IMG/VR virus record: IMGVR_UViG_3300031992_000063
Span: 22,390-86,389 of that record
Strand: one strand, 5' to 3'
DNA from: a virus
Taxonomy: Duplodnaviria; Heunggongvirae; Uroviricota; Caudoviricetes
Length of the DNA stretch: 64,000 bases
Shown: in pieces, positions 4,027 to 56,724 of the stretch
Layout of the letters: each line of letters begins with the position of its first letter
Numbering within the stretch: position 1 is the first letter of the stretch
The notes under the pieces: generated by a model
The model's input: only the letters and a program-made list of their open reading frames with translations
Databases searched by the model: none
What the model was told of the DNA's origin: nothing
Translations under genes and position numbers: made by a program

Positions 4027-6419
4027 GCTTACGTTTATGGGCGCCATTAAATGGCGACTTGCGGCAGATTGGAGCTTCTAATGCAGTATTAACGAATGAT
4101 GGAGCTACTGTTGATAATAACGGGAAAATTGGTAAATGTTATTCATTTGCTAATACTCATATTATAGTTGATAGCACTGATATTCAAGATATTTTATCAT
4201 CAACAACTTAGCCATTTTCAATGGCTTGTTGGATATATTTAAACAGCGATGAAACTGATAGAGTTATTATATTTGGAAATTATAGCGCCAATCCTTTTGT
4301 AAACTGGGAATTAGCTGCAAATTGTACTTAGCGTTTATGCGCGGGAGGTACAAGTAATTATGCTAATCGTACTAATAGTACTGTAGTTCCAAAAACTACT
4401 TGGACACATATTGCGGTAACATACAACGGAGCTACTACTACTTTCTATTAGAATGGTACTTCTGTTGGTAGTGTTAATGGCGTAAATACATTAACAACCA
4501 AAACAGCAAGTTCTAGATTTTATTTAGGCAGCGACGTTCGCAATGATGCTACGCGGTTAAAGGGAAAAATGAATGATTTTAGATTTTACGATCATTGCCT
4601 TTCTGCCGCTGAAGTTAAGGAAATTAGTTAGGGGCTGGTATTGCATTATAAGTTGGATGGAGGGGTGTTTGGAAATCCAAATCTATTAACCAATACAGAA
4701 AGATTAGATGCTAATGTTACCAAACCTTCAGGAGTGACAATTACTTCAAATGGATACAATAATTTTACTACCGCTACATATAATAATACATCTGGTACTT
4801 CATATCATGAATTATTAAGTTGGAGTGGGAAAGTAACGGTTTCAGCAAATGAAGTATATACTGCTTCATTTTATGCTAAATCTCCAACATCTGCTACATT
4901 AACTACCTATTTTTATAACAATACTTCTGGAGTAGTTTAGAATCAACTAGCAAAATCTTCTACCGGAGTAACTAGTAATGGTAGCGATGGAGTAATTTCT
5001 ATGGCATTAACTCCAAATTGGCAACGATATTGGATTACTTGGACGTTTAATTCTGTAGCAACATCTGCTACGAAAACTTTACTTTTTCGTCTTTTAAAGG
5101 GCTAGGGTGAAGTCTCAGTATGTGGTATTAAACTTGAAAAGGGTAATGCCGCGACTCCTTGGTGTCCCGCAGATAGCGAGCTATCAATTGATAGGACAAT
5201 TGTTGAAGATAGTAGTGGCTATAATCACAATGCCATATCCAATGGCTCCGCTGTAGTAACTCTAGATTCTGATACTCCTAAATATTCAGCTTCTACAAAA
5301 TTTATATCTGGTTCTAGAATAGCGATGCCCGTTGCTTCATCTACATGTCTGCCCACAGACGCTATTACGGTCAGTATATGGTATAAATCATCCGGTGGTA
5401 CTGCTCGATTTTTATCATGCACTGAAGGCGGCGGTTGGAACTTTGAAGTCAATTCTTCTAAAGCTTCTTTTCCCTTTTATATAAAAGGAAAAGGATATGG
5501 TCGTGTTATTGCTACTTAGAACTTCTATTCAGATAACATATGGCATATGATAACAGCATCATATAATGGAGTGAGTACTGCTAAAATTTATTTAGATGGT
5601 TAGTTAAATAATACGGCTACTATTACTAGCGGATGGGAAAATATACCGATTTCATATGCTACCTCTACTCCATTAACTCTTGGGGCAGAAGCTTAGACAA
5701 TCGCATCTCCAATTGCGGGAACTTATGTAGGCAATTTGAGTGATTTAAGAATATATTGTACTGCATTAAGCGATGATGCGGTACTTGAACTATATCACAC
5801 TGGCGCAAAAGTAGACAATAAAGCCAATATTCACACATATGAGATTAATGAAAATGGCGCGAATAAATTAACCAAAACTGGCATCTTATATGATAATATG
5901 ATAGAATCTATTAAAGTTCTGCCAGACGGAAGTTATTGGCAACTTCTCTTATTTCATTACGTAGATAACGGCAATAACCTTTTCACTTCTTCCAATGCCA
6001 CCAATTGTAACGACTTCGGTTTATATAGCCGCCTAAAAGATATAAATAATTTTACCTATAATGGAAAATATGAGTTCTATGTAATCCAAGATGATATAGA
6101 ATACCGATGGACACAAACAAACCAGCCAACCGCTTCTTCAGTTTCAGGATTAACTACTGTTAGTGGCTATGCCAACCCAGTTAATGGTCTAGCTAAAGCA
6201 AGCCAATCATATACATATATTGGCTATGGTACTTGGTGGGGTGCTTGCGGTGCGTGGACTAAATATTCAACTGGCGGAAAAACTGGTATTCCAGGTTTTG
6301 GCACTCATGATGTCAATGGTATGTGTACGCGTTATTTGGCATTGTATGCACGAATAGAAAAACCAGACGCAAAATTATCAAATCAAACTGCTAATAGTTT
6401 TGAATTTATAGAACTCTAA
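4023..6419 (+). CDS. Tail fibre / receptor-binding protein with two LamG (concanavalin A-like lectin) domains; TAG read as sense
   Basis: Frame 3 is open from GTG 4023 (RBS AAAGGAG 9 nt upstream) to TAA at 6417-6419, with about 9 in-frame TAG. LamG signatures are WTHIAVTYNGATTTFY(TAG)NG...RFYLGSD...FRFYDHCLSAAEV and a second copy ...ITVSIWYKSSGG...KIYLDG... The ORF track fragments 3984, 4641, 5325 and 5736 are all in frame 3. Confidence 0.75.
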
Positions 6420-6702: not shown

Positions 6703-9004
6703 TTTTTATAATGGTACAACATTAACTGGACATATGGGTAGTAGTAATACAGTTGTAGGAATTTACGGAGCTGACTCAATAGTTTTACGTCCAGGTGGAG
6801 CATCGGGAAATTCAACCAAAGGATTAAAATTATCTGCATCTAGTTTATTACCATAGCCCGCTAATACAATTGATCTCGGTGGTACTAGCAATTATTGGAA
6901 AACCGCATATTTAAGTGATATATATTTGTCAAGCGCTACCGCCTCATAGGCGATTGTTACGGATGCGGATAAGAAATTAGTAAGTAAACAATATACTCAA
7001 GACAACGTCGCATCCACTCTTGTATCTAGAGACGCAAGTGGTGATTTTAGTGCTCACACTATTACAGCGGCATTAAATGGTAATGCCTCAACTGCAACTA
7101 AACTTGCTGCCGCATGCACTATTTGGGGACATTCTTTTGATGGTAGTGGAGATATAGATGGTAATCCTATATTAAAAAATAGTGGTTCACGCTATCATTA
7201 TATTTATATTAAATAGCATAATACAGATAATACTGTCGGGGCTATAATGTACGATACTGGTAATGCTACCAATGTTACAGCCGGCCATTGGTATTTTTAT
7301 TCATATAGTCCAAAAGCAACAGCCGATAGTGGAACAAGTGGTCATTTTGAACGTTATCATTTACCAGCAGTAGATATAGGACGAACCAGCGATAAAACTT
7401 ATCAAATATTAACTGATAAATCTGTAGTTACAGTAGCATAGGGCGGTACTGGTATAACTACAGCTACATATAAAAATGCTATTATTGCGGGTAATGCCAG
7501 TACTGTGACAAATGCTTTTTAGGCTATTCGCACTAATAATGGAGCTTTTTATGCTACTGCGTAGGATGGAGCACCAAGTTTTGGCACATTACCAGTCGCA
7601 TAGGGCGGCACTGGCGCAACAAGTGCGGGTGCTGCTTATTCCAATATTAAGAATGGTAATTTTTTGTCTTGTAGTACCGCAATAGATGATGCCGCAAAAG
7701 TAGCTAGTTATACTGGTTTTGCACTAAAAACTGGAATAACTATAAGTATTAAATTTACACTATAGAATACCGCTGCAAATCCTACTTTAAATGTTAATGG
7801 TACCGGGGCAAAAGCAATTTATTGTAATGGAACAAGAGTAACCACTAAAGGTTTAGCACAAAATTACATTTATAGATTAATGTATGATGGAACTGATTGG
7901 CAAATTATAAATCCATAGAATAATTTAATTGGAACATGTGATACTGCAGTAGATACCACTGCTAAAACTTTAGATATTCCAGGATTTATACCATATACCG
8001 GAGCAACAGTATGGATTCAATTTACTAATAATAATAGTACTGCCACTCCAACTTTAAATATTAATGGTTATGGAGCGAAAAATATTTATAATGCTGGTGG
8101 ATAGACACGTACTCAATGGTATGTTTTTAATAAGAATCAATATCAAATTTTCATGTATGATGGTACTAAATTTAATATGACTGGTAATACTTTAAGACGT
8201 GAAATCTCTTTAGGAACTACTAGCTCACATGGATATGAAACAATCTTTTTAGGAAATAATATAGTTTCTACATCTCAAAATGGTATGACAGGAGTATTAG
8301 GATTATATAATGCCAAAACAAATGTTTTAAGAATTACAGCTGAAAAAAATAATTCTACTACTAATCGTTATTGGTATTTGCCTGATTTAAATTCTAATCG
8401 TTATTTTGTTACGCGTAATGCAGACGGTAGCCTAGGGAGTGAATCATAGCCAGTATATATTAGCGCTCACGCGGCAGTTAGCCTTTGTACTGCCACCCTT
8501 GATCTCGTCTATCCTGTCGGTTCTATCTACATTTCCACGGTTGCTGACAATCCGGGTGGCGGCGCAGATGCTATTTTTCCGAATACAACATGGGTGGCAT
8601 TTGGAAAAGGTAGAATGCTTATTGGATATGATGATGCACAAGGTAGCACCTTTGGTACTGGTGGCGCAGAAGGCGGAAGTACGACAAAATCGCTTGTTGA
8701 CGTTAATCTTCCTAGCCATTAGCATTTAATTAGTAGTGATAAAGTATCTACTAATAGTACTGGAGCACACCAACATAAAGGTTATAATGACTGGGTAGCA
8801 ACCACAAACGGAGGTTCTGGTCGTTTAACTGGCCAACAGAGCGGTTCTTCAAATACTTCAAATCCTATTACTCAATCTGCTGGCGATCATTCTCATACAG
8901 TTTCTGGTGTAACTGATTTTACTCCAGCAGAAGGCTCTGGTGCAGTTCCCTTTGATGTAATGAACCCTTATGTTGTAGTTTATATGTGGAAACGTACCGT
9001 GTAA
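6650..9004 (+). CDS. Tail fibre protein with a C-terminal HxH needle-type domain; TAG read as sense; N-terminus uncertain
   Basis: Frame 2 is open from 6548 to TAA at 9002-9004 with about 13 in-frame TAG. The first ATG is at 6650. Contains ...VA(TAG)GGTGITTA... and ...VA(TAG)GGTGATSAGAA... tail-fibre motifs. The C-terminal ...GAHQHKG...AGDHSHTVSG... HxH motifs resemble T4 gp37 and lambda Stf tips. Confidence 0.7.
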
Positions 9005-12846: not shown

Positions 12847-13092
12847 ATGATAGATTATGGAAGACAGTTTGGCTTTGTTGAGCCGCAAGAAGTAGAATTT
12901 ACAGATACTTCTGTATTTGTTGCTTCTAATATTCAGCCTAAAAATAAAAATGTAGAAGACTTTCAAATTAATGGATACGAATATGACCTTGTACAATATA
13001 CAAAGGATGAATATTTAATGAAGCAAGCCAATAGTATTGCCGCCTTACAACAAGAACTCGCCGCGGCAAAGATATTATTGGGGGTGGAGTAA
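12847..13092 (+). CDS. Hypothetical small tail-associated protein (81 aa)
   Basis: ATG 1 nt after the upstream stop, with RBS AAGGAGGG. Confidence 0.5.
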   Translation: MIDYGRQFGFVEPQEVEFTDTSVFVASNIQPKNKNVEDFQINGYEYDLVQYTKDEYLMKQANSIAALQQELAAAKILLGVE

Positions 13093-13095
13093 TCA

Positions 13096-13506
13096 ATGAC
13101 TTTAATTGAACTCGCGCGCAAATTGCGCCCATATATAGAAAAAGCGGCTTTATCTTTATCAGATGAAGATGCGCTAGAAGCCGTTGATTTATTTCCCCGC
13201 TGGGATGTTAATCACGGCGAATATGTAAAAGATGATAAAGTGAGATTTGAGGGCGTATTATATAAATGTCTTCAACAGCATTTTCCATAGGCAGGTTGGG
13301 CGCCAACATTGGCACCAAGCCTATGGACGAAAGTACTTATTCCAGATGAAAATGTTATTCCTGAATGGGAGCAGCCCGATAGCACTAATCCTTATATGAA
13401 AGGCGATAAGGTAATGTTTGATGGGAAAGTATATGAAAGTGCTATTGATAATAATATTTGGTCGCCCACTGCTTATCCAGCCGGCTGGGCAGAGGTAAAT
13501 ATTTGA
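13096..13506 (+). CDS. Tandem CBM5/12-type carbohydrate (chitin)-binding domain protein (136 aa), 1 in-frame TAG
   Basis: ORFs 13096..13290 and 13309..13506 share a frame and are joined by TAG. Two repeats of the ChtBD3 pattern: ...VKDDKVRFEGVLYKCLQQHFP(TAG)AGWAPTLAPSLW... and ...YMKGDKVMFDGKVYESA...AGW. Confidence 0.65.
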
Positions 13507-15157: not shown

Positions 15158-15227
15158 ATATACAGAAAGTGGGTAAGGAACCAACTTTCTAAAAAATAAT
15201 TTTCATAACATAAGGAGGTTATGAGGT

Positions 15228-15605: not shown

Positions 15606-15694
15606 AGCCCCTTAGTTGAATGGCACAACAGCTGACTCTAAATCAGTAAGTGGGATTGACCCCGCGGGTGAGCGTTCGAGTCGCTCAGGGGCCG
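15606..15694 (+). tRNA. Candidate amber-suppressor tRNA, anticodon CUA (reads UAG); isotype undetermined
   Basis: Cloverleaf: AGCCCCT / TA / D stem GTTG-AATGGCA-CAAC / anticodon stem GCTGA, loop CTCTAAA (U33, CUA, A37), TCAGT / 22-nt variable region with GTGGG-ATTGAC-CCCGC helix / T arm GAGCG-TTCGAGT-CGCTC / AGGGGCC / G73. A1-C72 is unpaired. Confidence 0.6.
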
Positions 15695-15781
15695 CGTGGG
15701 AAGCGGACGGCTAGCTACCGAAACGAGATAAGGATGCCCTATCATCCAGCCAAATTTTATTTCTATAGGGAGGAATATAAA

Positions 15782-17847: not shown

Positions 17848-17921
17848 CGGGCACTAGCTCAGTTGGTGAGAGCATCGGTCTTATAAACCGGTGGTCCTTG
17901 GTTCGAATCCAAGGTGCCCGA
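17848..17921 (+). tRNA. tRNA-Ile(TAT), AUA-reading
   Basis: CGGGCAC acceptor, GCTC-AGTTGGTGA-GAGC, anticodon loop CTTATAA, CTTGG-TTCGAAT-CCAAG. Confidence 0.6.
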
Positions 17922-19158: not shown

Positions 19159-19812
19159 ATGACATTTAATGTTACAGCTCAAGCTAATCTTGGCGTAGCC
19201 AATGTACAAATTCAGTATGATGGGTAGAAGCGATTAAAGTTGAGAATAATGTGCGGAAAAAAGTCTATATATTATGACCCCGTATCCAATATGGTAATAC
19301 CATTAACATTCGGAAATGGCACATATTCATTTCGACTGTATGAAAATACCATTGGTAATTCATATAAACTAATTGCTTCAAGGTCACGTTCTATTCATAT
19401 GAAGGATGTTAATGCCTATAAATTAAATGCTAACTATTTTGTTAATTTTGATGAAGCTTCCTCCTTCTTTCAAATTGCGAAAAAATTAAGAGATTGGACC
19501 GCAATTAAGAATTATATTAGTAATAATTTTAGATACGATTATATCAAAGCCTTAACTGCACCAAAATCTAAAAATCTAGTGCCTCCAGACTTAGAAAAAG
19601 TTTTTTCAGAGAAAAGTGGTATTTGTGACGGACTTGCGGCATTAACTGTAGCATTCGCGCGCATCTGCGGCATTCCTGCTACATTAGTAATGGGAAAGGC
19701 AGACAGAAATGCACATGCTTGGGTAAAAGTTGGCGATGAATTATTTGATCCTACTTATGTTATCCAACGGCGCAGAACAAAAATTAAATATGTAGAAGAA
19801 CGTGAGTATTAA
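19159..19812 (+). CDS. Transglutaminase-like cysteine peptidase domain protein (about 217 aa), 1 in-frame TAG
   Basis: ATG 19159 is in frame with ORF 19240..19812 through TAG at about 19225. Cys, His and Asp are present in GICDGLAAL...NAHAWVKVGDELFDPTYV. Confidence 0.5.
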
Positions 19813-19816
19813 TTAT

Positions 19817-19844
19817 TTGACTTTCTTACAAATTATGTTATAAT
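19817..19844 (+). promoter_or_regulatory. Consensus promoter (TTGACT-16-TGtTATAAT)
   Basis: Promoter family member, immediately upstream of the interrupted tRNA. Confidence 0.55.
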
Positions 19845-19864
19845 ATATTTGTAAGAAAGGGAAT

Positions 19865-20028
19865 GGCCCTATAGCTCAGTTGGTAGAGCATGCGGCTGGT
19901 CAGAATAGCCAAGTAGTAAGGCATACCATCCCAAGAGAATTATTCTCGTAAGAAGGTAATCGCAAGTGCAATTCTTGCTTCTGGCGCCATTAACCGCAGT
20001 GTCGTAGGTTCAAGTCCTACTGGGGCCG
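19865..20028 (+). tRNA. Interrupted tRNA: canonical acceptor, D, T and anticodon stems with an about 91-nt structured insertion in the anticodon loop; anticodon undetermined
   Basis: GGCCCTA / TA / GCTC-AGTTGGTA-GAGC / A / TGCGG [98 nt] CCGCA / GTGTC / GTAGG-TTCAAGT-CCTAC / TGGGGCC / G. The insert contains nested helices GAGAA-TTA-TTCTC and GCAAG-TGCAATT-CTTGC. Confidence 0.5.
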
Positions 20029-20075
20029 AACATCTTTCATCATCTTCAAACATCTTTTAACATCTTTCAATCACC
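20029..20075 (+). repeat. Four tandem copies of an 8-11 nt unit (ACATCTTTCA / CATCTTCAA / ACATCTTTTA / ACATCTTTCAA)
   Basis: Direct repeats between two tRNAs, followed by the hairpin GGCGC-GAGA-GCGCC. Confidence 0.5.
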
Positions 20076-20097
20076 TCTAGGCGCGAGAGCGCCACTT

Positions 20098-20169
20098 GGG
20101 CCTATCGTCCAATGGTTAGGACTCTAGACTGTTAATCTAGGTATCTTGGTTCGAATCCAAGTGGGCCCG
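20098..20169 (+). tRNA. tRNA-Asn(GTT)
   Basis: GGGCCTA acceptor, GTCC-AATGGTTA-GGAC, anticodon loop CTGTTAA, CTTGG-TTCGAAT-CCAAG. Confidence 0.7.
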
Positions 20170-20173
20170 CTTT

Positions 20174-21690: not shown

Positions 21691-22330
21691 ATTTAAAAAT
21701 AATGACACTTACAGCAACTTTTTGGAACAAGATTTTCTGTATAAAAATTTTATAAAGGTGTCATGATAGTTTAGACGCTTACAGCAACTATTTAATACAA
21801 TTTGTGCCATATTTTTACAAATAATATTGTGCGTCTAGATTTTTAGCCATTGCGAGGATAGTTGCCCGCAACATCCTACGTTTTATCATATGAAATGGCT
21901 CGCGCGATTGCTGACGGCAGTAGAGCGCGCGTTATAAATATCGGAACTTGCCGTTTCCTTGCCATACGGTGGTAGTTCCGTTCAAGGCAGAAAACCTGCG
22001 GTCCAGCTGGACGCGATGATGGCTAGTTTGGGGTTTTACGCCACGCTTTTAGGAAGCGCAACCCGCTAGAACGAGATTCTAGCACGCCTCTCCCTATCCC
22101 TATACGCCTCTTAACAATGCGCACCACATAGGGCATTCTGTTAGAGCCTTACACGCCTCTTAACAATGCGGACCAAGTAAGGACATTTAGTCTCGATTAG
22201 TAAAACTTGTATACCGGTTACCTCTAAGCTAAGTTACGAGTTATAGGCTTTAATAAATATAGGAGCAATGAGCGGCTACTTTGCTTAATATTCGGCCCGC
22301 TGACGAGCGTCTATGACAAATCCTATATTT
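21691..22330 (+). ncRNA. About 640-nt non-coding region with two pairs of direct repeats
   Basis: AC(A/G)CTTACAGCAACT(T/A)TTT at about 21705 and 21770. ACGCCTCTTAACAATGCG(C/G)ACCA at about 22105 and 22152. GC-rich hairpins such as CGCGCG...CGCGCG. Confidence 0.3.
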
Positions 22331-28426: not shown

Positions 28427-28657
28427 ATGAGTAATAAAATTTATGATATTTTTAACCCAAATTCTGATTATAATAAATATGTTATTGAAAAGGTTAATAA
28501 AGAATTTATTGATAATAGAGAATGCTTTGTATGTAAACATTGTATAGATATATCTGATGATAGGAATACTTGTCATTTATGTGAATATACGCATGATTTA
28601 TTACCAAAAGAATTAACATGTTTACTTTGGGAATTGGAGGAAGAAAATGAATCTTAA
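28427..28657 (+). CDS. Cys-rich zinc-finger protein (76 aa)
   Basis: CFVCKHC...CHLCEY. Confidence 0.5.
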   Translation: MSNKIYDIFNPNSDYNKYVIEKVNKEFIDNRECFVCKHCIDISDDRNTCHLCEYTHDLLPKELTCLLWELEEENES

Positions 28658-29459
28658 TATTTATACAGAAGAAATGGCAAAATCGGCACTAGATAAGGCA
28701 TTCTTTATTGATAAAATTCCGGGCGCAAAATGCGTAATTGATTTTGGTTGTGCTGATGGCGCGATGATTAGATTTTTAGCGCCACTGTTCCCATCTATTG
28801 AGTTCTTTGGATATGATAGTAATGACGAACTTATTGAAATGGGCGAACAGGCGCTGTCAGAAGAAATTAGCAATGTATCATTTTGGCGAAAGGGAGAACT
28901 ACCTAGGATGATACATTGGATAAAAGACTCGTATTCTATGAATGAAGTTTGTCTTAATTTTTCATCCGTGCTGCATGAAGTATTTTCATTTAATAATGGT
29001 ATTGACGAAATTAAAACTCTGATTAAAGAAATTACACCTAAATATATTACTATTCGTGATATGTATTGGCATGCAGGGCCAGGCGTTAATTATCTAAGAT
29101 GCCAGGAAAAACGCATCAGAGAAGCGGTTCTGCCGCAATACCTTGAAGAATATGAAAATCATTTTGACTACATTCATAGCCCGAAAAATATTACTCACTT
29201 CCTTATGAAATATCAGTGGAAAGATAATGGATGGGAAGATGAATTAAAAGAAAATTATTACTCTTGGGATATCAATGATTTGCTTAAAATTGTTGATAAT
29301 GTTGAGTATGATAAAGAACATGGCGACCAGACTTGCTATGACCTTGTATTTTCTAACTATTACCAGCTTCCATATCTTACAGAAAAATGGCTTAACGAAT
29401 ATGGAATTTACAATGTAAACGCGCATACGCACGCGCAGTTTATTCTTAGGAGGATGTAA
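28647..29459 (+). CDS. Class I SAM-dependent methyltransferase (270 aa)
   Basis: Motif I VIDFGCADGAMI. Confidence 0.55.
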   Translation: MNLNIYTEEMAKSALDKAFFIDKIPGAKCVIDFGCADGAMIRFLAPLFPSIEFFGYDSNDELIEMGEQALSEEISNVSFWRKGELPRMIHWIKDSYSMNEVCLNFSSVLHEVFSFNNGIDEIKTLIKEITPKYITIRDMYWHAGPGVNYLRCQEKRIREAVLPQYLEEYENHFDYIHSPKNITHFLMKYQWKDNGWEDELKENYYSWDINDLLKIVDNVEYDKEHGDQTCYDLVFSNYYQLPYLTEKWLNEYGIYNVNAHTHAQFILRRM

Positions 29460-29460
29460 T

Positions 29461-29991
29461 ATGGCAACTTTATATATTCTATGCGGTCCCAGCGGATGCG
29501 GAAAAACTACTTGGGCGTGGAAATTTATGGGCGATGACATAGATGTCCGTTATGTTTCCCGCGATGAAATTCGTTTTAGTATGCTTAAAGAAGATGAAGA
29601 TTATTTTGCTCACGAGAAGGAAGTGTTCCGTAAGTTCGTAGGAACAATCGCGCAGACGCTTATTGATGACTTTGATGTAATTGCCGATGCTACTCATCTT
29701 ACAGAGGCTTCACGCAAAAAGCTTATTCGCGCAATTGATGAATATATCACGGACTATTCCATTACCTATGTAGTATTTTATACTCCAATTCAAAAGTGCT
29801 ATGAGAATGACGCTACTAGAACTGGAATAAGATATGTAGGAGAGCAGGTAATTCAAGGAATGTTCCGTTCCTTCAAGGCGCCGACTCTTAAAGAAGATTC
29901 TCGCGCAATTAAGATTATTGAAGTTGGAGAAGGAAAAGAAGATTTTTCCTATTTGATTGAACCTTATAGAAAGGAGTATGAAGATGACTAA
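29461..29991 (+). CDS. P-loop kinase (polynucleotide kinase-like, 176 aa)
   Basis: Walker A LYILCGPSGCGKTT. Adjacent to the phosphoesterase, mirroring the T4 Pnk domain pair. Confidence 0.55.
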   Translation: MATLYILCGPSGCGKTTWAWKFMGDDIDVRYVSRDEIRFSMLKEDEDYFAHEKEVFRKFVGTIAQTLIDDFDVIADATHLTEASRKKLIRAIDEYITDYSITYVVFYTPIQKCYENDATRTGIRYVGEQVIQGMFRSFKAPTLKEDSRAIKIIEVGEGKEDFSYLIEPYRKEYEDD

Positions 29992-30553
29992 TATTTGGCT
30001 TACATCGGATTTACACCTAATGCACTCTAAGTCCTTCCTTTGGGAACCTCGCGGCTTTTCTTCTACGGAAGAAATGTGCGAAGCTATCGTAGAAAGATGG
30101 AATTCGGTTGTTGATAAAGGAGATTTGGTATATAACCTTGGTGATATTGCGCTTTCAGATACAGATGCGGCAATTCCTTATCTTCAGCGGCTTAATGGTT
30201 ATCAGGTATGGCTTAGGGGCAACCACGATACTGATAATCGTGTAAATAAAGTGCTTGACGCTTGCCCCAACATTCATCTTCTTGGCACGCCTGACACTTC
30301 CTATGCTACTGTAATTAAATCGGGTAAGTGGCATTTTTATCTTTCTCACTATCCTACTTATACTTGTAATAATGAGCCTTGGCGCAAGGTAGCAAATCTT
30401 TGCGGCCATAGTCATACGCAGGATAAATGGGCAGATTGGGATAAAATGTGCTACCATGTAGAAATGGACGCGCATAATTGTTATCCAGTAAATCTGGAAG
30501 AAATTAAAAATGACATTTACGAGAAGCGTATTCAAGAGCAGACAAATATTTGA
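29957..30553 (+). CDS. Calcineurin-like metallophosphoesterase (198 aa)
   Basis: DLHLMH, GDIA, GNHD and GHSH motifs. Confidence 0.65.
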   Translation: MNLIERSMKMTNIWLTSDLHLMHSKSFLWEPRGFSSTEEMCEAIVERWNSVVDKGDLVYNLGDIALSDTDAAIPYLQRLNGYQVWLRGNHDTDNRVNKVLDACPNIHLLGTPDTSYATVIKSGKWHFYLSHYPTYTCNNEPWRKVANLCGHSHTQDKWADWDKMCYHVEMDAHNCYPVNLEEIKNDIYEKRIQEQTNI

Positions 30554-30638: not shown

Positions 30639-32132
30639 ATGAGTGAATTTCTTAATGCGATGAAGAGCGAATTTAACTACGGCTATACTGAGAACGGCGG
30701 TATCAAGCATACTTCAACTTTGAATAGCGTGCTTGATATGTTTGCTATGGGTGGCTCTATGCGTAATCGTCCGGAAGAGGATATTATTCGTATGTTTAAG
30801 AAGGCATACGAAGAAGATGCTACTCTTGCTCTAAAGTGCCTCTTCTATCTGCGCGATTGCCGCGGCGGCCAGGGACAGCGTCGTTTCTTCCGCATCTGCT
30901 TCAAGTGGCTTGCTGACCATCACTGCGCTGAGGTGGTCCATCTAATTCCTTTTGTAGCAACCTACGGGCGCTATGATGACCTTTATACTCTGTTTGGTAC
31001 TGCTTGTCAGACCGATATGCTTGAATACTTTGAAAAGGTAATTAAGCAGAATGAGGACCATCTTGTATATAAGTGGCTTCCTTCTATCAATACTTCCTCT
31101 TACGAAACCCAGAAGCGCGGTCGTATCATCGCTACTTGGCTTGGTATGACTGAACGCCAGTATCGTAAGATGCTGTCTGAAGGCCGTAAGGCTTGTAAGC
31201 TTGTTGAAACTCTCATGAGCCAGCAGCGCTGGAATGAGATTGAATTTAATAAGCTACCCTCTCGCGCAGGTATTCTGTATAAGAAGGCGTTCATGCGCCG
31301 TGAAGAAACCAGAGAACGCTATGCTGCGTTTATGGATAGCAAGGAAACCAAGGTTAATGCTGGCGTGCTTAACCCCGTAGATATCGCACACCAGATTTTC
31401 AACAGCTACAATCCCTCTAAGACCGAACGAAAGGCTTGGGATAAGTATTGGGAATGTCTTCCCGACTACTACAACGGTCGCGAAGAGCCTGGCATTGCTG
31501 TTGTAGATGTTAGCGGCAGTATGTTTGGAACTCCTATAGAAGCGGCAGTCTCTCTTGGCGCTTATATCGCAGAACGCGGATATGGTCCTTTCAAGAACCA
31601 TTTCATTACTTTCAGCGGCAATCCCGAACTTATTGAGTTTAGTGGAATTGATTTGTATGATAAGTTTGTTCGCGCGCAGAGAGCAGACTGGGGCGGTAAT
31701 ACAAATATTGAGGCGGTTTTTGACCTGCTTCTAAATACCGCAATTAAGTCTCACATGTCAGCAGATAAGATGCCCAAGACTCTGTATATCTTCTCTGACA
31801 TGGAGTTTGACCACTGTATGACTTATGGCCCTGTTGTTTATGACCGTTGGGTTAGCGGTAATGCTATCATCGATGAAAAGCGGCTTCTTACTGTCATTGA
31901 AGCACAGGCAGAAAAGTGGACACGAAATGGCTATGAACTTCCTCGTGTAATCTTCTGGAACCTTAATGCTCGTCATGACAACATCCCCGCACTTGGTGGT
32001 AGATTCTCATATGTAAGTGGCTTCTCACCCGTTATGATTTCTACTATCCTTGGCGGCAAGGATGGATGGGACCTATGCCTTGAAAAGCTTAATAGTGATA
32101 GATACAGCGTAATTGCTAGTGTCTTAGTATAA
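30639..32132 (+). CDS. DUF2828-like protein with vWA/MIDAS domain (497 aa)
   Basis: MIDAS motif VVDVSGSM. Large helical N-terminal domain. Confidence 0.55.
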   Translation: MSEFLNAMKSEFNYGYTENGGIKHTSTLNSVLDMFAMGGSMRNRPEEDIIRMFKKAYEEDATLALKCLFYLRDCRGGQGQRRFFRICFKWLADHHCAEVVHLIPFVATYGRYDDLYTLFGTACQTDMLEYFEKVIKQNEDHLVYKWLPSINTSSYETQKRGRIIATWLGMTERQYRKMLSEGRKACKLVETLMSQQRWNEIEFNKLPSRAGILYKKAFMRREETRERYAAFMDSKETKVNAGVLNPVDIAHQIFNSYNPSKTERKAWDKYWECLPDYYNGREEPGIAVVDVSGSMFGTPIEAAVSLGAYIAERGYGPFKNHFITFSGNPELIEFSGIDLYDKFVRAQRADWGGNTNIEAVFDLLLNTAIKSHMSADKMPKTLYIFSDMEFDHCMTYGPVVYDRWVSGNAIIDEKRLLTVIEAQAEKWTRNGYELPRVIFWNLNARHDNIPALGGRFSYVSGFSPVMISTILGGKDGWDLCLEKLNSDRYSVIASVLV

Positions 32133-34715: not shown

Positions 34716-36092
34716 ATGAGCGTACATTGTGGTTATATTATTCAGGTAAAGGACCTTCGTCCGCATCCCAATGCTGACCGGCTTCAACTTCTTCATATAT
34801 TTGAGACCGATACTTGCGTTGGACTGGATGTAAAGGTTGGAGATATTGGCATGTATGTGCCTGCCGATATCAAGCTCGGAGAGCGTTTTTGTCAGGTAAA
34901 TGGACTTCTGCGGCAGAAAGATGAAAATGGAAACCCTATCGGAAATGGTTATCTTGACCCGCAGAAGCGTAATGTAAAGGCAATCAATCTGCGCGGACAG
35001 CGGTCGGATGGTATCTATCTACCTATCACTTCTCTAATGGATTTTTGTAAGATTTCCGACCTAAAGGTTGGCGACCAAATTACTGTTCTTAATGGTGAAA
35101 CCATTTGTGAGAAGTACATTCCGCGTGTTAATCCTGCTCGCGCCGGCTCTATGCCGCATCTTAAGGGAGTAAAGAAGAATATTTGTCCTCTGTTCGCAGA
35201 ACATGTAGAGACCGAGCAGCTTGCTTATAATCTTGATAAGTTTCATACTGGCGATATCGTACAGCTAACCCTCAAGATGCATGGTACCTCTCAGCGCACT
35301 GGTAATCTGCCAGTAATTCATGAACGCAAGCAGAACTTTATTCAGAAACTATTTCATCGTCCTGTAAAGACCTACACCGAATATGAAAACATTACCGGTA
35401 CTCGTCGTGTAGTTCTCGCGGGCGAACGCAAGGGTGGATTTTATGAAAGCGATGATTTTCGCTATGCTATGGCTGCTAAGTTTGACGGTAAACTTCCTCG
35501 CGGCATTACTGTCTACTATGAAGTGGTGGGTTTCCAGGGACCTAACGGCGCTTCAATTATGGGCCAAGTCGCTAATAGCAAGATTAAAGACAAGGCATTC
35601 GCACAGCAATACGGAGAAATGACTACCTTCTCTTATGGATGCGTACAAGACCATAAGTATGAAATGGAAGAACCTCTTGAGACTGGCGTATATCATCCTT
35701 GTTGCGAACTTTATGTTTATCGTATCACTATGACCAATGAAGATGGATTTGTAATGGAATTCTCTCCTGACCAGATTAAGCTTTGTTGCGAACAGTGGGG
35801 CGTAAATGTTGTTCCTGAATTTGAGCGCTTTATTATTCCTGACGGTGTAAATCCGGGAGAATATGTAGTGCGTAAGGTTGAAGAGTACTATGATGGCCCT
35901 GACCCTATCGGAAAGACTCATGTGCGTGAAGGCGTAGTTGCTCGTATTTGTAATCGGTCTAACTTTGCGGTGTATAAGCATAAGAACTTCTCCTTCAAGG
36001 TACTGGAAGGCATTGCGAAGGATGAAGCAGCCGCACCTGATATGGAAGAAGCGCAGGAAATTGTTGAGGAAGATAATAATGAATCAATGTGA
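34716..36092 (+). CDS. RNA ligase (Rnl2-like nucleotidyltransferase) with N-terminal tRNA-binding OB domain (458 aa)
   Basis: N-terminus GYIIQVKDLRPHPNADRLQLLHI...VGDIGMYVPADIKLG resembles the tRNA_bind/EMAP fold. Motif I KMHGTS = KxHG. Confidence 0.55.
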   Translation: MSVHCGYIIQVKDLRPHPNADRLQLLHIFETDTCVGLDVKVGDIGMYVPADIKLGERFCQVNGLLRQKDENGNPIGNGYLDPQKRNVKAINLRGQRSDGIYLPITSLMDFCKISDLKVGDQITVLNGETICEKYIPRVNPARAGSMPHLKGVKKNICPLFAEHVETEQLAYNLDKFHTGDIVQLTLKMHGTSQRTGNLPVIHERKQNFIQKLFHRPVKTYTEYENITGTRRVVLAGERKGGFYESDDFRYAMAAKFDGKLPRGITVYYEVVGFQGPNGASIMGQVANSKIKDKAFAQQYGEMTTFSYGCVQDHKYEMEEPLETGVYHPCCELYVYRITMTNEDGFVMEFSPDQIKLCCEQWGVNVVPEFERFIIPDGVNPGEYVVRKVEEYYDGPDPIGKTHVREGVVARICNRSNFAVYKHKNFSFKVLEGIAKDEAAAPDMEEAQEIVEEDNNESM

Positions 36093-36537: not shown

Positions 36538-37470
36538 ATGGGACTATTAATTTTAGCTTTCTTCGCACTTATTAGTGGCTTTATTGCCGCCGCAGTGGTT
36601 GACAGAAGGCGACATCCTTCATTGAAGATTGCTTTGCCGCTAATAGGCATTGTACTTGCCGTTATTTTGGCAATTTGCGCTTGTATTTCATATGTTCCTA
36701 CTGGATATACTGGTATCGTAACTACCTTTGGTAAGGTACATGATGAAGTGCTTGACGCAGGAATTAAGTTCCATGCGCCGTGGGACAATGTAATTAAAAT
36801 GGATAATCGTGAACAGAAAGTTTCCTTTAGCCTACAAGCTTTCTCATCTGATATCCAAGAAGTATCTATTGCTGGGTCTGTTAATTTAAATATTAACAAG
36901 ACCGTAGCAATGGATTTATATAAAAATGTCGGTACGGATTATCTTAATATTATTGCGATGCCGCGTATCCTTGAGGATGTAAAGACAGTATTTAGTCAGT
37001 ATACTGCTGAAAACCTTATTGCCGAGCGCAATACTCTATCAGTTAAAATTGCTAATTTGCTTAGTGAAGATTTAAAGAAACAGGGCTTAAATATTATTAG
37101 TGTAGCAATTGAAGATGTAGATTTCTCTGATGCTTATACAAATAGTGTAGAAGCAAAGCAGGTTGCTACACAGGAAAAGCAGCGCGCTCAGACGCAGCAG
37201 GAGCAGCAGACTATGGAAGCTACACAGAAAGCCGAACGCGACCGCATTGCCGCGCAGGCCGCCGCAGATGTGGCTAAGATTGAAGCAGACGCAAAAGCTT
37301 ATGCTATTCAGGTTGAGGCAGAAGCAAAGGCAGAAGCCAATAAGAAAATGAACCAGTCGCTAACGCCTGAACTAATTGAATATACAAAAATTAATACATG
37401 GAATGGACAACTGCCCACAATTACTGGCGGGGCAACTCCTATTATTAATCTCACCGAAGAGGGCGAATAA
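36538..37470 (+). CDS. SPFH/band-7 (prohibitin/HflC-like) membrane protein (310 aa)
   Basis: N-terminal TM, SPFH core ...TGYTGIVTTFGKVHDEVLDAGIKFHAPWDNV..., Ala/Gln/Glu-rich C-terminal coiled coil. Confidence 0.65.
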   Translation: MGLLILAFFALISGFIAAAVVDRRRHPSLKIALPLIGIVLAVILAICACISYVPTGYTGIVTTFGKVHDEVLDAGIKFHAPWDNVIKMDNREQKVSFSLQAFSSDIQEVSIAGSVNLNINKTVAMDLYKNVGTDYLNIIAMPRILEDVKTVFSQYTAENLIAERNTLSVKIANLLSEDLKKQGLNIISVAIEDVDFSDAYTNSVEAKQVATQEKQRAQTQQEQQTMEATQKAERDRIAAQAAADVAKIEADAKAYAIQVEAEAKAEANKKMNQSLTPELIEYTKINTWNGQLPTITGGATPIINLTEEGE

Positions 37471-43790: not shown

Positions 43791-44396
43791 ATGGATTTAG
43801 AAGAACTATTTGGCTCGGTAGAAAAATATGGTTTTGATCCAGTAATGTATCAGTATTTTCATCAGCTTCTAGATAATAGAACAATTGTTATGAATGAATA
43901 TGTAACTGATGCTACTGTAGAAAAGGTATTCCTTCCAATGCGTGAATTTGAAAAGGACGATTCAAAAGACCCCGTCACGATTATATTAAATTCTTGCGGT
44001 GGCGATGTATCAAATGGTTTCTACCTAGCCCAATATATTTCTCAGTATTCCAAACCATTACATATTATCGTTCCAGGAATTGCCGCAAGTATGGCAGGAA
44101 TTATTCTTGCTGGCGGCGGGAAAAATGAGAATGTAACAAGATATTGTTTCCCAGCGTCATATGTATTACTACATGATGGATATGTCGCTTTGGAGTCTAG
44201 TGAAGCACGAACCGCGGATGACATTATGGATTTTAATAAACGAGTAGATGCTGATATTCGTCAATTTATTATTGACAATACTAACATTAGTGCCGAGTTA
44301 TATGATAAACATGCTCGTCAGCAGTGGTTTATCAAATCAACCGAGATGAAAGAACTTGGACTAATTGATCGCATTTACGGAGTTGATGATAAATGA
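43791..44396 (+). CDS. clpP: ClpP-family serine protease (201 aa)
   Basis: ClpP/S14 core ...ILNSCGGDVSNGFYLAQYI...HIIVPGIAASMAGIILAGG... Confidence 0.65.
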   Translation: MDLEELFGSVEKYGFDPVMYQYFHQLLDNRTIVMNEYVTDATVEKVFLPMREFEKDDSKDPVTIILNSCGGDVSNGFYLAQYISQYSKPLHIIVPGIAASMAGIILAGGGKNENVTRYCFPASYVLLHDGYVALESSEARTADDIMDFNKRVDADIRQFIIDNTNISAELYDKHARQQWFIKSTEMKELGLIDRIYGVDDK

Positions 44397-46826: not shown

Positions 46827-47378
46827 ATGAAAATTTATTTAGCCGGCCCTATCTTTACCTATGGCGATTTGCTTCGTAATACTGAATGGGCAAAGAAAAT
46901 TCGTGATGCTATTCCAGATGTTGATTTATATTCTCCCGTGGAAAATACCGATATTAACGGTGTTGAAGGAAAGAAGAAGTTTGCTGGTTCTCAGGAAATT
47001 GCGAATGGCGATAATATTCGCTTAAACGCAACAGATATTCTTATTGCCTGTATAGACGGAGATGTTTTGCCTAGTGGTACTTGCGCCGAAATTGGTAAAT
47101 TTCATGAGAAAATTGAGCGTGGCGACCATAAATATATTGTTGGTATCTGTACAGATAATAGGCAAATGTATTTAACACATAGCGAAGCAAAGGACAAAGG
47201 TGGCGCTGCCGCATTAGGAGAACAGCAATACAGCTATCAAAACTTATATGTAACCGGACTTATCAAACAAGGCGGTATTCTCGTATCAAATATAGAAGAT
47301 GCTATTGCTTTTGTAAAGGAAAAAGAATATGAATTTGATACAACTATGCCTAATGAGTCCGTGTCAGATTGGAGGTAA
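46827..47378 (+). CDS. Nucleoside 2-deoxyribosyltransferase (183 aa)
   Basis: MKIYLAGPIFTYGDL...ILIACIDGDVLPSGTCAEIGKF. Confidence 0.65.
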   Translation: MKIYLAGPIFTYGDLLRNTEWAKKIRDAIPDVDLYSPVENTDINGVEGKKKFAGSQEIANGDNIRLNATDILIACIDGDVLPSGTCAEIGKFHEKIERGDHKYIVGICTDNRQMYLTHSEAKDKGGAAALGEQQYSYQNLYVTGLIKQGGILVSNIEDAIAFVKEKEYEFDTTMPNESVSDWR

Positions 47379-48225: not shown

Positions 48226-49518
48226 ATGAGTAATTTAATTTATGAAGTAAACGACAAACCAAAGACAATGAAAGAATATCTAGGATATTCATTTCAGGTT
48301 CTATTTTCTTGTATCACAGCAACACTACTAATTGCGCTAATTTGCGGCACAAATCTTAGTGCGGGTTTAGTCGCCGCAGGTATCTCTACGATTTTCTTTC
48401 TCTGTATCACAAAATTCTCTGCGCCGATTGTTATCTCTAATAGTGGAGCTACTGTTAGTGCTGTTATTGGCGCAATTATGCTATGTAGCGGAGTAGAAAA
48501 GAATTTGCTTGGTGTAATGTTCGGCGGACTCACAATTGCTATTATTTATTGTCTCGCCGCAGTAGCTATTAAAAAATTTGGCATTGGTTGGATAACAAAA
48601 TTAATTACACCAGTAATGTCTGGCGCAATTATTCTTATTATCTCTATTCAACTTGGCTTTTTTATTCCTACTTACGCGCAGGTTAATGGAGTTTATTCTC
48701 CTCTTGGCGTAGGAATTACTTTCCTTAGTATGCTATTTGTACTACTATTTGCTTTTTATGGAAAAGGGTTAATGAAGAGATGGCCTATCCTATTCGGCGT
48801 ACTTTGTAGTTATATTGTTTGTATTATTTTAACTGTTACGAATGTTGCTGATTTAGTTAATCTTAATCACTTTAAAAATATACAACTCTTTATGGTTCCT
48901 GACTTTGCGTTCTTCCACATTAATTTCAATACTTTTGACTGGTCAGTAATGCCACAAATTTTACTCAGCTTTACATTAGTAGCCCTTGGCGCGCTTGCTG
49001 AACACCTTGGCGATATGATTAATGCTTCCAATATTTGTGAAAGAAATTTCTTAGAGACACCTGGCTTACAGAAAACATTAGTCGGCGATGGAATTGGCTC
49101 ATTTATTGGCACAATTATCGGCGCACAACCTAATACCACTTATACAGAAAACCTATCAACTATTCTTATTAGCAAATGTGCTAGTGTCTATGTCACGCTT
49201 CTTGCCGCAATTGAGCTAATTTTACTAGGCTTCTTTGGTCCATTTAATAGTTTTATTCAAGCACTTCCTAATGCTACCTTCGCAGGTGCATCCATTTGCT
49301 GCTATGGTATGATTGGCGCATCAGCTATTAAATTTCTAAAGCAAACCAATATCAATTTTAATAATGAAAAAACTATTTGGATTTTCGCGGTAATGTTGAT
49401 GGTTGGTACTTCTGGTTTATCCATTAACTATCGCTCATTTGGAATTAGCGGCATTTGTCTAGCAATTATTACTGGCATTATTCTTAACTTAATTATTAAG
49501 GAGAAAGAAAATGTATAA
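48226..49518 (+). CDS. Nucleobase permease (NCS2/AzgA-like membrane transporter, 430 aa)
   Basis: About 12 predicted TM helices with NCS2-type glycine-rich segments. Confidence 0.5.
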   Translation: MSNLIYEVNDKPKTMKEYLGYSFQVLFSCITATLLIALICGTNLSAGLVAAGISTIFFLCITKFSAPIVISNSGATVSAVIGAIMLCSGVEKNLLGVMFGGLTIAIIYCLAAVAIKKFGIGWITKLITPVMSGAIILIISIQLGFFIPTYAQVNGVYSPLGVGITFLSMLFVLLFAFYGKGLMKRWPILFGVLCSYIVCIILTVTNVADLVNLNHFKNIQLFMVPDFAFFHINFNTFDWSVMPQILLSFTLVALGALAEHLGDMINASNICERNFLETPGLQKTLVGDGIGSFIGTIIGAQPNTTYTENLSTILISKCASVYVTLLAAIELILLGFFGPFNSFIQALPNATFAGASICCYGMIGASAIKFLKQTNINFNNEKTIWIFAVMLMVGTSGLSINYRSFGISGICLAIITGIILNLIIKEKENV

Positions 49519-56208: not shown

Positions 56209-56724
56209 ATGAAAACTGGACTTTGCGGATTATATAGATTTAAAAATAAGCAAGGTGAAATTATTTATATTGGTAAGGCTGATGATATTCATAAACGATT
56301 AAAAGGGCATAAACATCTTGAACCAGAACAATATCAAGAGGTATCAACTATTGAATATGCTATAGTTAATAATAAAGCAGATAGAGATATTATAGAGACT
56401 ATGTTAATTTCACAAATTAATCCCAAATATAATACAACACAAAAGTATACAGAACAAGCAAGTTTAATAATAGATGGAGAGATAATGCTTTTATGGCAAA
56501 AAGTTGATCCCAAAGAATATAATTTTCAAGCAAAGAAAAAAGAACATAGAGGCACAGGAGTACAAGGTCGTCCACGTATAGAAGTACCACCATTATTTTA
56601 CGAGTTATATCCTAAATGGAAAAATGGTGAAATAACAGCCACTGCTATGGCAAAAGAAGTTGGTTTAACTCACTGTACATTTTATCGTCGTGTAAAAGAA
56701 TATGAAGCTACTTTAAATAAGTAA
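56209..56724 (+). CDS. GIY-YIG nuclease with C-terminal HTH (171 aa), AT-rich, no TAG
   Basis: GLYRFKNKQGEIIYIGKADDIHKRLKGH...ETMLISQINPKYNT. C-terminal ...ITATAMAKEVGLTHCTFYRRVKEY. Confidence 0.65.
   Translation: MKTGLCGLYRFKNKQGEIIYIGKADDIHKRLKGHKHLEPEQYQEVSTIEYAIVNNKADRDIIETMLISQINPKYNTTQKYTEQASLIIDGEIMLLWQKVDPKEYNFQAKKKEHRGTGVQGRPRIEVPPLFYELYPKWKNGEITATAMAKEVGLTHCTFYRRVKEYEATLNK

Follow-up and report, generated by a model that had tools for sequence, protein, structure and literature searches.

To our knowledge, all known tRNA introns are either group I or group II ribozymes, or bulge-helix-bulge (BHB) introns that depend on a dedicated endonuclease. In the enzymatic splicing of archaea and eukaryotes, two protein-catalysed cuts in the anticodon region generate 2',3'-cyclic phosphate and 5'-OH ends, and the halves, held together by the body of the tRNA, are then ligated; one such intron, that of archaeal tRNA-Trp, encodes a box C/D guide RNA. 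tRNA-like processing signals are known in mascRNA at the 3' end of MALAT1, in the t-elements of plant mitochondria and in mitochondrial tRNA punctuation, and the bacteriophage T4 proteins Pnkp and Rnl1 repair the anticodon-loop breaks made by host anticodon nucleases. Bacterial group I introns interrupt tRNA anticodon loops between positions 33/34 and 36/37, as in tRNA-Leu(UAA) (34/35) and the tRNA-Asn and tRNA-Asp (35/36) of Patescibacteria, and are 184-894 nt long (PMC13011429). Here we describe a tRNA-Asn(GUU) gene of a large tailed phage, the anticodon loop of which contains a 91 nt insert that itself resembles a tRNA from its first base to a terminal CCA. The gene was found in a 64,000 nt stretch of IMG/VR record IMGVR_UViG_3300031992_000063 (positions 22,390 to 86,389), referred to below as the window.

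The split gene lies on the plus strand, within an array of 20 tRNA genes extending from 15.6 to 26.4 kb. RF00005 spans it completely, from 19865 to 20028 and from model position 1 to 71, with a score of 51.6 bits (gathering score 29), leaving an unaligned block of 95 nt in the anticodon loop. A first-pass annotation of the window, made from the sequence alone, had described canonical acceptor, D, anticodon and T helices, all of which were recovered at the same positions. In the anticodon stem, UGCGG (19891-19895) is separated from CCGCA (19994-19998) by 98 nt, and the insert length of about 91 nt given in that annotation proves to be exact, this distance being a 7 nt loop plus 91 nt.

The exact junction and the identity of the outer tRNA were fixed by comparison with uninterrupted genes. 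A more distant relative in the same phage lineage (L026), several segments of whose tRNA array are 82-92% identical to the window, has an uninterrupted homologue with the same acceptor stem and G73, which is called Asn(gtt); the BLAST blocks corresponding to 19864-19898 and 19990-20028 adjoin without a gap in this genome, the break falling exactly at 19898|19990. Joining both halves of the anticodon arm with the middle base left free (CTGNTAA) gave a pattern that was run on IMG/VR, where 20 of 20 uninterrupted tRNAs had T at the free position, making them Asn(GUU), and none was Thr(GGU). The equivalent slot in another related genome, L002, also holds an Asn(GUU) gene. As all 20 IMG/VR homologues are Asn, and the BLAST alignment to L026 breaks at this point, the outer gene is a tRNA-Asn(GUU) split between G34 (19898) and U35 (19990), with an insert from 19899 to 19989; hence the anticodon, which the first-pass annotation considered unreadable until the splice junction was known, can be read as GUU. 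The discriminator is G73 (20028), a base that contributes to tRNA-Asn identity, and exon 2 encodes no CCA of its own. When joined, the exons form a 7 nt loop, CUGUUAA, and a canonical cloverleaf at minimum free energy (-30.6 kcal/mol), with a predicted junction of GCGGCUG|UUAACCGC, i.e. GCAUGCGGCUG|UUAACCGCAGUG. Global similarity of the exons to the other tRNAs of the window did not resolve the isotype.

Standard annotation does not recover this gene. ARAGORN misses it with default settings, and in intron-search mode reports a 91 nt intron in a Thr(ggt) gene; this call was rejected, as it results from a 1 nt shift of the boundary and every homologue is Asn. Genes containing group I introns, which occur in the same phage arrays, are likewise missed by default tRNA finders or called Thr instead of Asn, ARAGORN having made the same misassignment of intron-bearing tRNA-Asn genes (PMC13011429).

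The first-pass annotation was correct in regarding the insert as structured, although it missed that the structure mimics a tRNA from +1 to CCA. In isolation, the insert, the ends of which read 5'-GUCAGAA...UUCUGGC-G-CCA-3', matches RF00005 with 36.1 bits (gathering score 29; E=9.6e-7), model positions 1-71 aligning with 19899-19986. This match is not seen in scans of the whole gene because overlapping matches of the same clan are suppressed. The limits of the insert are therefore fixed twice, once by the break in the homologue at 19898|19990 and separately by the tRNA model, position 1 of which is 19899, and the CCA end. The minimum free energy fold of the isolated 91-mer has a cloverleaf-like shape, and in the precursor a double cloverleaf lies within 3.4 kcal/mol of the minimum. 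None of 200,000 shuffles of the insert gave a 7 bp terminal stem, a T arm with a 5 bp stem and 7 nt loop, and a terminal CCA in register, which excludes a chance origin of the architecture.

The insert mimics a tRNA but is not one that decodes: 31 nt take the place of 13 model positions, the tip of the rod that replaces the anticodon arm differs between variants, and ARAGORN called no tRNA in the isolated insert. It does contain the features of a processing substrate, namely a 7 bp acceptor stem stacked coaxially on a 5 bp T stem, U54, C56 and A58, a 3 nt leader (CUG) and a 3' GCCA. Hence, as modelled, it appears to have the architecture of a substrate for RNase P and RNase Z.

Syntenic loci (L001-L012) were collected through the protein cluster of a transglutaminase-like gene, which ends 52 nt upstream of the split tRNA, and through contig look-ups; the source contigs, from ENA, Logan and JGI metagenomes, are phage genomes of around 184 kb. 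The same flanking gene gave no syntenic loci in IMG/VR, and neither the 29-mer junction probes nor an insert probe had any match there. A junction probe had no match in GTDB genomes; in JGI metagenomes, it matched a single contig, from the same clade. GenBank phages included no close relative in megablast or blastn searches, the best protein identity being no more than 35%. Nine of the loci L001-L012, and also L033, contain the interrupted tRNA, in four sequence variants. As at least ten independent metagenome assemblies carry the split gene with identical or nearly identical exons, it is not an assembly artefact.

The exons of these variants differ only in the outer T loop, where A57 is replaced by G, still a purine. 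The inserts vary mainly in the apical hairpin, which is replaced by another hairpin rather than destroyed, and the top half of the inner mimic and the long rod with its internal loops are kept in all of them. About 20 nt upstream of the gene is a sigma-70-type promoter-like site, which is identical before this slot in all the related genomes. In L002-L004, the slot behind the promoter is occupied by a free-standing GIY-YIG homing endonuclease gene, which has in-frame TAG codons, and an uninterrupted tRNA-Asn(GUU) of a different sequence.

A second nested tRNA was found in the same clade when intron-aware ARAGORN was run on the related loci. In L005-L007, the tRNA-Ile(UAU) gene, which is intact in the window, has a 76 nt insert between U34 and A35; alignment of these loci with the window reveals a clean 76 nt indel, the flanks otherwise being identical, with no target-site duplication. 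The inner element is a canonical suppressor tRNA(CUA), with A as the discriminator and a terminal CCA, scoring 41.4 bits with Rfam. L005 carries two different CUA suppressors, the other being at 6019-6108, and no intact tRNA-Ile(UAU) was called across this 20.6 kb locus. These are two independent events in one phage lineage, sharing the same position (34/35) and the same limits (+1 to CCA). An encoded CCA is otherwise rare, being present in one of the 19 other tRNA genes of the window and one of 15 in L005; as both inner elements have it, CCA is special to nested elements in this clade.

Such positions are also those of bacterial group I introns, genuine examples of which exist in the same arrays, in direct contrast to the nested elements: the tRNA-Leu(UAA) of L005 has a group I intron at U34|A35, and RF00028 matches a real intron in L002. 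A self-splicing or self-cleaving RNA of an unknown and very small type might therefore be envisaged. However, RF00028 did not match the insert at its gathering score or at E<=10; at the latter threshold, neither the insert alone nor positions 19780-20100 had any match to group I, group II or ribozyme models in Rfam, including hammerhead, twister, pistol, hatchet and HDV-like ribozymes, and tRNA was the only Rfam family found in the insert. Group I introns are ribozymes that match RF00028, are preceded by U and end in G, whereas here the 5' exon ends with G34, the insert ends with A, and the tRNA model covers its entire length. At 91 nt, the insert is half the length of the smallest bacterial tRNA group I intron, far below the range of 184-894 nt (PMC13011429). 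Self-splicing is hence very improbable. The first-pass annotation was thus justified in setting aside a typical group I intron, but its suggestion of a minimal self-splicing one has nothing to support it; of the covariance models it proposed to apply, those for tRNA match both the outer gene and the insert, and the group I model matches neither.

An intron of the archaeal or eukaryal type, removed by a BHB splicing endonuclease, would also interrupt the anticodon loop, and a protein-dependent mechanism is plausible in principle. Yet the junctions do not lie in two 3 nt bulges around a 4 bp helix: in the predicted folds, the 5' junction is at the base of a 7 bp helix and the 3' junction is in an 8 nt single strand. 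Furthermore, the insertion is at 34/35, not 37/38, and the gene belongs to a tailed phage, whose promoters are of the bacterial type. This explanation, which had already been discounted in the first-pass annotation, is scarcely credible.

Nested tRNAs were also found well beyond this clade, a recurrence that the first-pass annotation had missed. IMG/VR was searched with a probe defined by geometry alone (inner T-loop, 12 nt, CCA, 16-19 nt, outer T-loop), which tandem tRNAs cannot fit, and the matches were passed through a strict filter that demanded 7/7 pairs in the inner acceptor stem, an inner T stem, 5/5 pairs in the outer anticodon stem around a rebuilt 7 nt loop and at least 6/7 pairs in the outer acceptor stem. 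Among the matches listed, 18 of 124 passed, one of which (L037) was a false positive; in a register-shift control, none of the 124 passed. A second probe, keyed to the UGCAAUU T-loop, found five nested tRNAs in 15 matches. This T-loop was rejected as a marker of nested elements, since it is shared by free-standing tRNAs of L076 and L132. In 185,579 cellular genomes, the first probe gave a single plausible case out of 123 matches, on a 166 kb contig of a gut metagenome-assembled genome. We define the nested class as having an inner element that runs from +1 to N-CCA within outer positions 34-37, the joined halves of the outer gene forming a normal tRNA; the window gene and at least 19 further distinct cases have this arrangement, giving a minimum of 20, about 18 of which came from the probes; nearly all are on viral contigs, many longer than 100 kb.

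The joined outer halves are called as normal tRNAs by ARAGORN in nearly all cases (Asn, Lys, Ile(UAU), Ile(GAU), Glu, Gln and Thr), and the rebuilt anticodon loops are always canonical 7-mers. Insertions are found at 34/35 (nine cases), 35/36 (six) and 36/37 (five), and 18 of the 20 arrangements have U immediately before inner +1; amongst the first 13 nested cases, 12 had U at this position (P=0.0016 given the composition of the loop). The excised elements include true tRNAs, for Asn in L061 and L120 and for Gly in L099; the rest are mimics, 70-135 nt long, the middle part of which is degenerate or elongated. These mimics keep the acceptor stem and T arm while the anticodon arm degenerates, a pattern that fits selection for recognition by end-processing enzymes. 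In two diverged pairs, Lys[Asn] in L061 and L120 and Ile[mimic] in L108 and L149, all the inner and outer helices that were checked are kept through compensatory substitutions; in the Lys pair, nine of the 17 outer stem pairs have changed on both sides, and none is broken. The split tRNA is the only gene for its own anticodon in the fetched locus at 19 of 20 nested loci, and the outer tRNA hence appears to be needed. We regard the structural description, and the existence of the nested class, as secure.

It is possible, and we advance the idea tentatively, that these genes represent an unrecognised class of intron present in many large phages, in which a tRNA or tRNA mimic is excised by RNase P and a 3' nuclease, and a phage ligase reseals the outer tRNA. 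For the window gene, removal of a 'tRNA-shaped intron' by the ordinary enzymes of tRNA end processing, followed by resealing of the outer tRNA, is on balance the somewhat probable course for the pathway as a whole. A protein-spliced intron was one of the possibilities raised in the first-pass annotation. The architecture, its exact limits, its recurrence, the conservation of both partners and the genes for a ligase, a kinase and a phosphoesterase are observed directly, and from these we infer each of the enzymatic steps. Bacterial RNase P recognises the stack of acceptor stem and T arm, prefers U at position -1 and binds a 3'-RCCA. Here, it would recognise the inner acceptor stem, T arm and elbow together with the 3' GCCA and cut at inner +1, leaving exon 1 with a 3'-OH. 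A second cut, by a 3'-processing endonuclease, would fall immediately behind the inner CCA and give exon 2 a 5'-phosphate. Cleavage after CCA has precedents in the Thermotoga tRNase Z and E. coli RNase BN, and inhibition of RNase Z by CCA would prevent a wrong cut after the discriminator. A 3'-OH and a 5'-phosphate are the ends that RNase P and RNase Z-type enzymes produce, and ATP-dependent RNA ligases join ends of this kind. The phage ATP-dependent RNA ligase would seal the exons, which would remain paired through the acceptor, D, anticodon and T helices of the outer tRNA, to give the 7 nt loop CUGUUAA of tRNA-Asn. The released inner RNA would be a by-product in this case, because it has no anticodon loop, and in other members of the class would be a working tRNA, such as the amber suppressor of L005.

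The same two cuts could serve only to release the inner RNA, the outer tRNA being a carrier, the halves of which are discarded or act as tRNA halves or decoys. That the inner RNA is a real tRNA in other loci (suppressor CUA in L005; Asn or Gly in L061, L099 and L120), and that the window has an intact second tRNA-Asn, would accord with this. However, the inner RNA of the window has no anticodon loop and no obvious use as a tRNA, and across the class the canonical rebuilt loops, the compensatory changes in the outer helices and the presence of the outer tRNA as the sole gene for its anticodon at 19 of 20 fetched loci all speak for an outer tRNA that is restored. Release alone is therefore unlikely.

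Alternatively, the insert may be a non-functional scar, formed by ligation of a mature tRNA-like RNA into a broken loop and copying into DNA, or by an accident of recombination, and tolerated in a pseudogene. Limits at +1 and CCA would be expected had a mature RNA been inserted, the phage has genes for RNA repair, the slot varies between strains with homing endonuclease genes nearby, and the downstream tRNA-Asn makes the split copy redundant. Nevertheless, the gene has its own strong promoter-like site, its exons are identical or have only the tRNA-compatible change of A57 to G, the arrangement recurs in unrelated phages with both partners intact, and no reverse transcriptase was seen in the window. 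We judge a scar to be distinctly unlikely. The permanently inactive tRNA proposed in the first-pass annotation is correspondingly unlikely for the class, in which the helices are kept and the outer tRNA is the sole gene at 19 of 20 loci; the idea retains some force for the window gene itself, with its intact Asn(GUU) neighbour 70 nt away.

Once the insert is excised, resealing of the outer tRNA would require a ligase. Between 28.6 and 38.4 kb, the window encodes an RNA ligase, a Pnkp-like kinase, two metallophosphoesterases, a methyltransferase and a DUF2828 protein. The methyltransferase, kinase-like protein and one of the metallophosphoesterases are adjacent on the plus strand and, on the basis of their domain matches, form a candidate RNA end-healing set. 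The ligase, a candidate sealing enzyme, also has matches to the NCBIfam DRB0094-type RNA ligase (E=5.5e-13) and to Pfam RNA_ligase (23.9 bits), both of which are below the respective cut-offs. The DUF2828 gene is about 10 kb from the split tRNA. Homologues of this DUF2828/DUF7788 protein lie within a few kilobases of nested tRNAs in three unrelated loci, L044 (11140-12675), L061 (545-1984) and L217 (3721-5226), against four of around 100 other probe loci. This proximity may reflect a functional link or shared ancestry.

Another possibility is that the composite, or the excised inner RNA, is a functional non-coding RNA, either a Y-RNA-like partner of DUF2828 or a decoy for anticodon nucleases. 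The DUF2828 homologues near nested tRNAs in L044, L061 and L217, and the retention of the long rod with internal loops in all variants, are compatible with such a role. The association with DUF2828 is, though, statistically weak and may be due to shared ancestry, and the rods of different members have no visible motif in common. A bacterial Y RNA of the YrlA type was rejected for the insert, which has no Rfam Y-RNA match and a different topology: the Ro-binding stem of YrlA is formed by the RNA's own ends, whereas here the ends form an acceptor stem and CCA, and the rod is closed by a loop. A non-coding RNA function is improbable.

Several considerations weigh against excision by end-processing enzymes and resealing of the outer tRNA. 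CCA blocks RNase Z in many bacteria, and the proposed cut after CCA is the weakest link of the pathway. The window gene is atypical of the class in having G, not U, at -1, and because there is an intact tRNA-Asn(GUU) 70 nt downstream, the split copy might not be needed, or might even be in decay. Arguing against decay are the identity of the exons between assemblies, the near-consensus promoter and the preserved top half of the inner element. Divergence within the clade is too low for a real test of covariation or selection on this insert, and the probes used for the census demanded CCA and fixed spacing, and so cannot prove that those features are universal. The ligase bears a weak resemblance to the DraRnl type and none that is demonstrable to T4 Rnl1, the known sealer of anticodon-loop breaks. 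A search of PDB sequences with it gave no match, and a single-sequence AlphaFold model, which had a pLDDT of 31, was not used. Finally, an RNA ligase gene was found near only one other candidate locus (L035), the fetched loci being short.

Excision followed by resealing would share the logic of archaeal and eukaryotic splicing, in which two protein cuts in the anticodon region precede ligation of halves held by the tRNA body. It would differ in that the insert has no BHB motif and is not at 37/38, in that the proposed nucleases are those of tRNA end maturation, and in that the ends would be 3'-OH and 5'-phosphate rather than 2',3'-cyclic phosphate and 5'-OH. As in mascRNA and t-elements, a non-decoding tRNA mimic would act as a handle for RNase P and RNase Z on a longer transcript; however, those elements separate or terminate mRNAs or long non-coding RNAs, their flanks are not rejoined, and none is inside another tRNA. 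The resealing of a tRNA beside the wobble base by a phage kinase/phosphatase and ligase is the task of T4 Pnkp and Rnl1, and the window has an analogous set of genes, but the T4 break is damage done by the host to its own tRNA, whilst here the break would be programmed by the structure of the gene, and the ligase is not demonstrably of the Rnl1 type. The archaeal tRNA-Trp intron is likewise a structured small RNA with a function of its own, although it is of the BHB type and contains a guide RNA, not a tRNA mimic. In its mode of action, the element would come closest to an enzymatically spliced tRNA intron that doubles as a tRNA-like processing signal, in the manner of mascRNA or the t-elements. 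A search of the full-text literature, with subscription-only articles outside its reach, found no tRNA nested in a tRNA and no tRNA-like intron, the only introns described in bacterial tRNAs being of groups I and II. Hence, the nested tRNA appears to be a new kind of arrangement.

Almost all of the interrupted tRNAs have an anticodon that is rich in U or of the Q type (Lys UUU, Glu UUC, Gln UUG, Asn GUU, Ile UAU, Thr UGU and Leu UAA). There is overlap between these and the tRNAs classically attacked by anticodon nucleases that cleave beside position 34, which could be a coincidence, the same tRNAs also being the commonest in phages. The class may have originated when mature tRNAs were inserted into anticodons broken in the contest between the anticodon nucleases of hosts and the repair systems of phages, and may have persisted because an insert also destroys the target sites of homing endonucleases or nucleases. 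Speculatively, the insert of the window gene may shield this DNA site from the homing endonuclease found in the same slot of the sister genomes.

If the proposed excision occurs, an intron cut out by the universal tRNA-trimming enzymes through tRNA mimicry would be a new and very economical solution, and a natural counterpart of the tRNA-flanked processing cassettes that have been engineered. The maturation of some phage tRNAs would then depend on phage enzymes of RNA repair, linking ligase, kinase and phosphatase cassettes, usually regarded as counter-defence, to tRNA biogenesis and a possible housekeeping role. In some genomes, the same transcript would also deliver a second tRNA, for instance an amber suppressor for stop codon recoding. 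In annotation, these genes fall in a blind spot, that of the window being missed by ARAGORN by default and called Thr in intron mode; as the split gene is mostly the sole copy for its anticodon in the fetched locus, phage tRNA repertoires, and inferences on codon usage and recoding drawn from them, are affected.

Table 1. Coordinates of the split tRNA-Asn(GUU) gene, its tRNA-like insert and associated features. Positions are those of the window, except in the row for L005.
Feature	Position	Strand	Details
Exon 1, outer positions 1-34	19865-19898	+	Acceptor 5' strand, D arm, anticodon-stem 5' strand, C32 U33 G34
Inner tRNA-like insert	19899-19989	+	91 nt; RF00005 match on isolated insert
Inner acceptor stem	19899-19905 (5' strand), 19979-19985 (3' strand)		7 bp, from first base
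Inner U8 A9	19906-19907		
Inner D arm	19908-19922		
Inner rod in place of anticodon arm	19924-19958		35 nt; variable apical hairpin 19935-19947
Inner variable region	19959-19961		
Inner T arm	19962-19978		5 bp stem, 7 nt loop UGCAAUU
Inner discriminator and CCA	19986 (G), 19987-19989 (CCA)		CCA forms the last three bases of the insert
Exon 2, outer positions 35-73	19990-20028	+	U35 U36 A37 A38, anticodon-stem 3' strand, variable loop, T arm, acceptor 3' strand
Sigma-70-type promoter-like site	19817-19844	+	TTGACT, 16 nt spacer, TG-extended TATAAT; 11/12 consensus positions
Perfect 11 bp inverted repeat	19823-19857		TTCTTACAAAT / ATTTGTAAGAA; flanks -10 element; conserved in L001-L012
Second, intact tRNA-Asn(GUU)	20098-20170	+	ARAGORN; Rfam 66.1 bits; 70 nt downstream, redundant isoacceptor
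tRNA-Ile(UAU), intact 'empty site' allele	17848-17921	+	
Nested tRNA-Ile(UAU) gene of L005	8358-8507 (L005)		Inner element 8393-8468; also in L006 and L007
SAM methyltransferase	28647-29459	+	Pfam, NCBIfam
P-loop polynucleotide-kinase-like protein	29461-29991	+	Weak match to bacterial Pnkp kinase domain
Metallophosphoesterase	29957-30553	+	Pfam, NCBIfam
DUF2828/DUF7788 protein	30639-32132	+	Named 'RNA-binding protein' in PHROGs
ATP-dependent RNA ligase, candidate sealing enzyme	34716-36092	+	phrog_968 'RNA ligase', E=1.6e-59

Around the split gene, the inverted repeat about the -10 element of the promoter-like site is a possible operator. The spacer between the two tRNA-Asn genes (20030-20097) contains three or four direct repeats of ACATCTTT, and a GC-rich hairpin, GGCGC-GAGA-GCGCC (approximately 20080-20093), abuts the 5' end of the second gene and is conserved in L002.

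The array also includes a suppressor tRNA with the anticodon CUA, 90 nt in length with a long variable arm (15606-15695). The GIY-YIG gene of L002 (10787-11428) has several in-frame TAG codons, one of them within the GK-YVG motif. Given these codons and the suppressor, this phage lineage probably reads TAG as an amino acid.

The tRNA array is a hotspot for mobile elements. Further tRNAs that are intact in the window are interrupted in sister genomes, at 7353-7688, 13043-13293 and 18379-18938 of L002 and at 8593-8926 and 17700-18259 of L005. The interruptions in the sisters include a suppressor tRNA with a 244 nt insert, and a tRNA-Pro(UGG) with a 485 nt insert encoding a PD-(D/E)XK protein. 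The intron of tRNA-Leu(UAA) in the sisters is a classic group I intron of 261 nt, in a gene that ARAGORN wrongly calls Gln, and the RF00028 match in these genomes adjoins a GIY-YIG gene.

Between tRNA-Leu(UAA) and tRNA-Met, the segment 18686-18882 contains a D arm-like sequence (AGCUC-AAAGGCGA-GAGC) and two T arm-like ones (GCAG-UUCGAGU-CUGC and GUAGG-UUCGACC-CCUAC). Within the clade its sequence is 99-100% conserved, and two unrelated IMG/VR contigs (L028 and L030) have segments with about 71% similarity to it. As a candidate third nested tRNA it was rejected, there being no tRNA call with or without introns, no Rfam call and a weak fold z-score of -1.3; it is probably another structured RNA.

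Between tRNA genes, orphan T arm-like hairpins follow the second tRNA-Asn (GTTGG-TCCAAAT-CCAGC, 20219) and a tRNA-Pro (AAGGG-TTCAAGT-CCCTT, 26429), and positions 11680-11710 of L002 resemble a tRNA 3' fragment. All these may be leftovers of tRNA gene turnover. Rfam also detects two tandem abiF RNA motifs inside the array (22098-22134 and 22147-22183; 37.9 and 29.8 bits), and a cow-rumen-4 RNA motif at 15162-15224 (63.8 bits), which is present in L002 as well (59.7 bits).

The remainder of the window contains genes for tail proteins, topoisomerase II, DNA ligase and RNase H. Two GIY-YIG endonuclease-like open reading frames (56209-56724 and 56759-57928) lie between the topoisomerase II subunit genes (54324-56189 and 60095-62164), which suggests that homing endonucleases have invaded this locus too. 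Cargo unusual for a phage is also present, consisting of an SPFH/Band 7 protein (36538-37470), a ClpP-like protease (43791-44396), a nucleoside 2-deoxyribosyltransferase (46827-47378) and a permease of the xanthine/uracil family (48226-49518).

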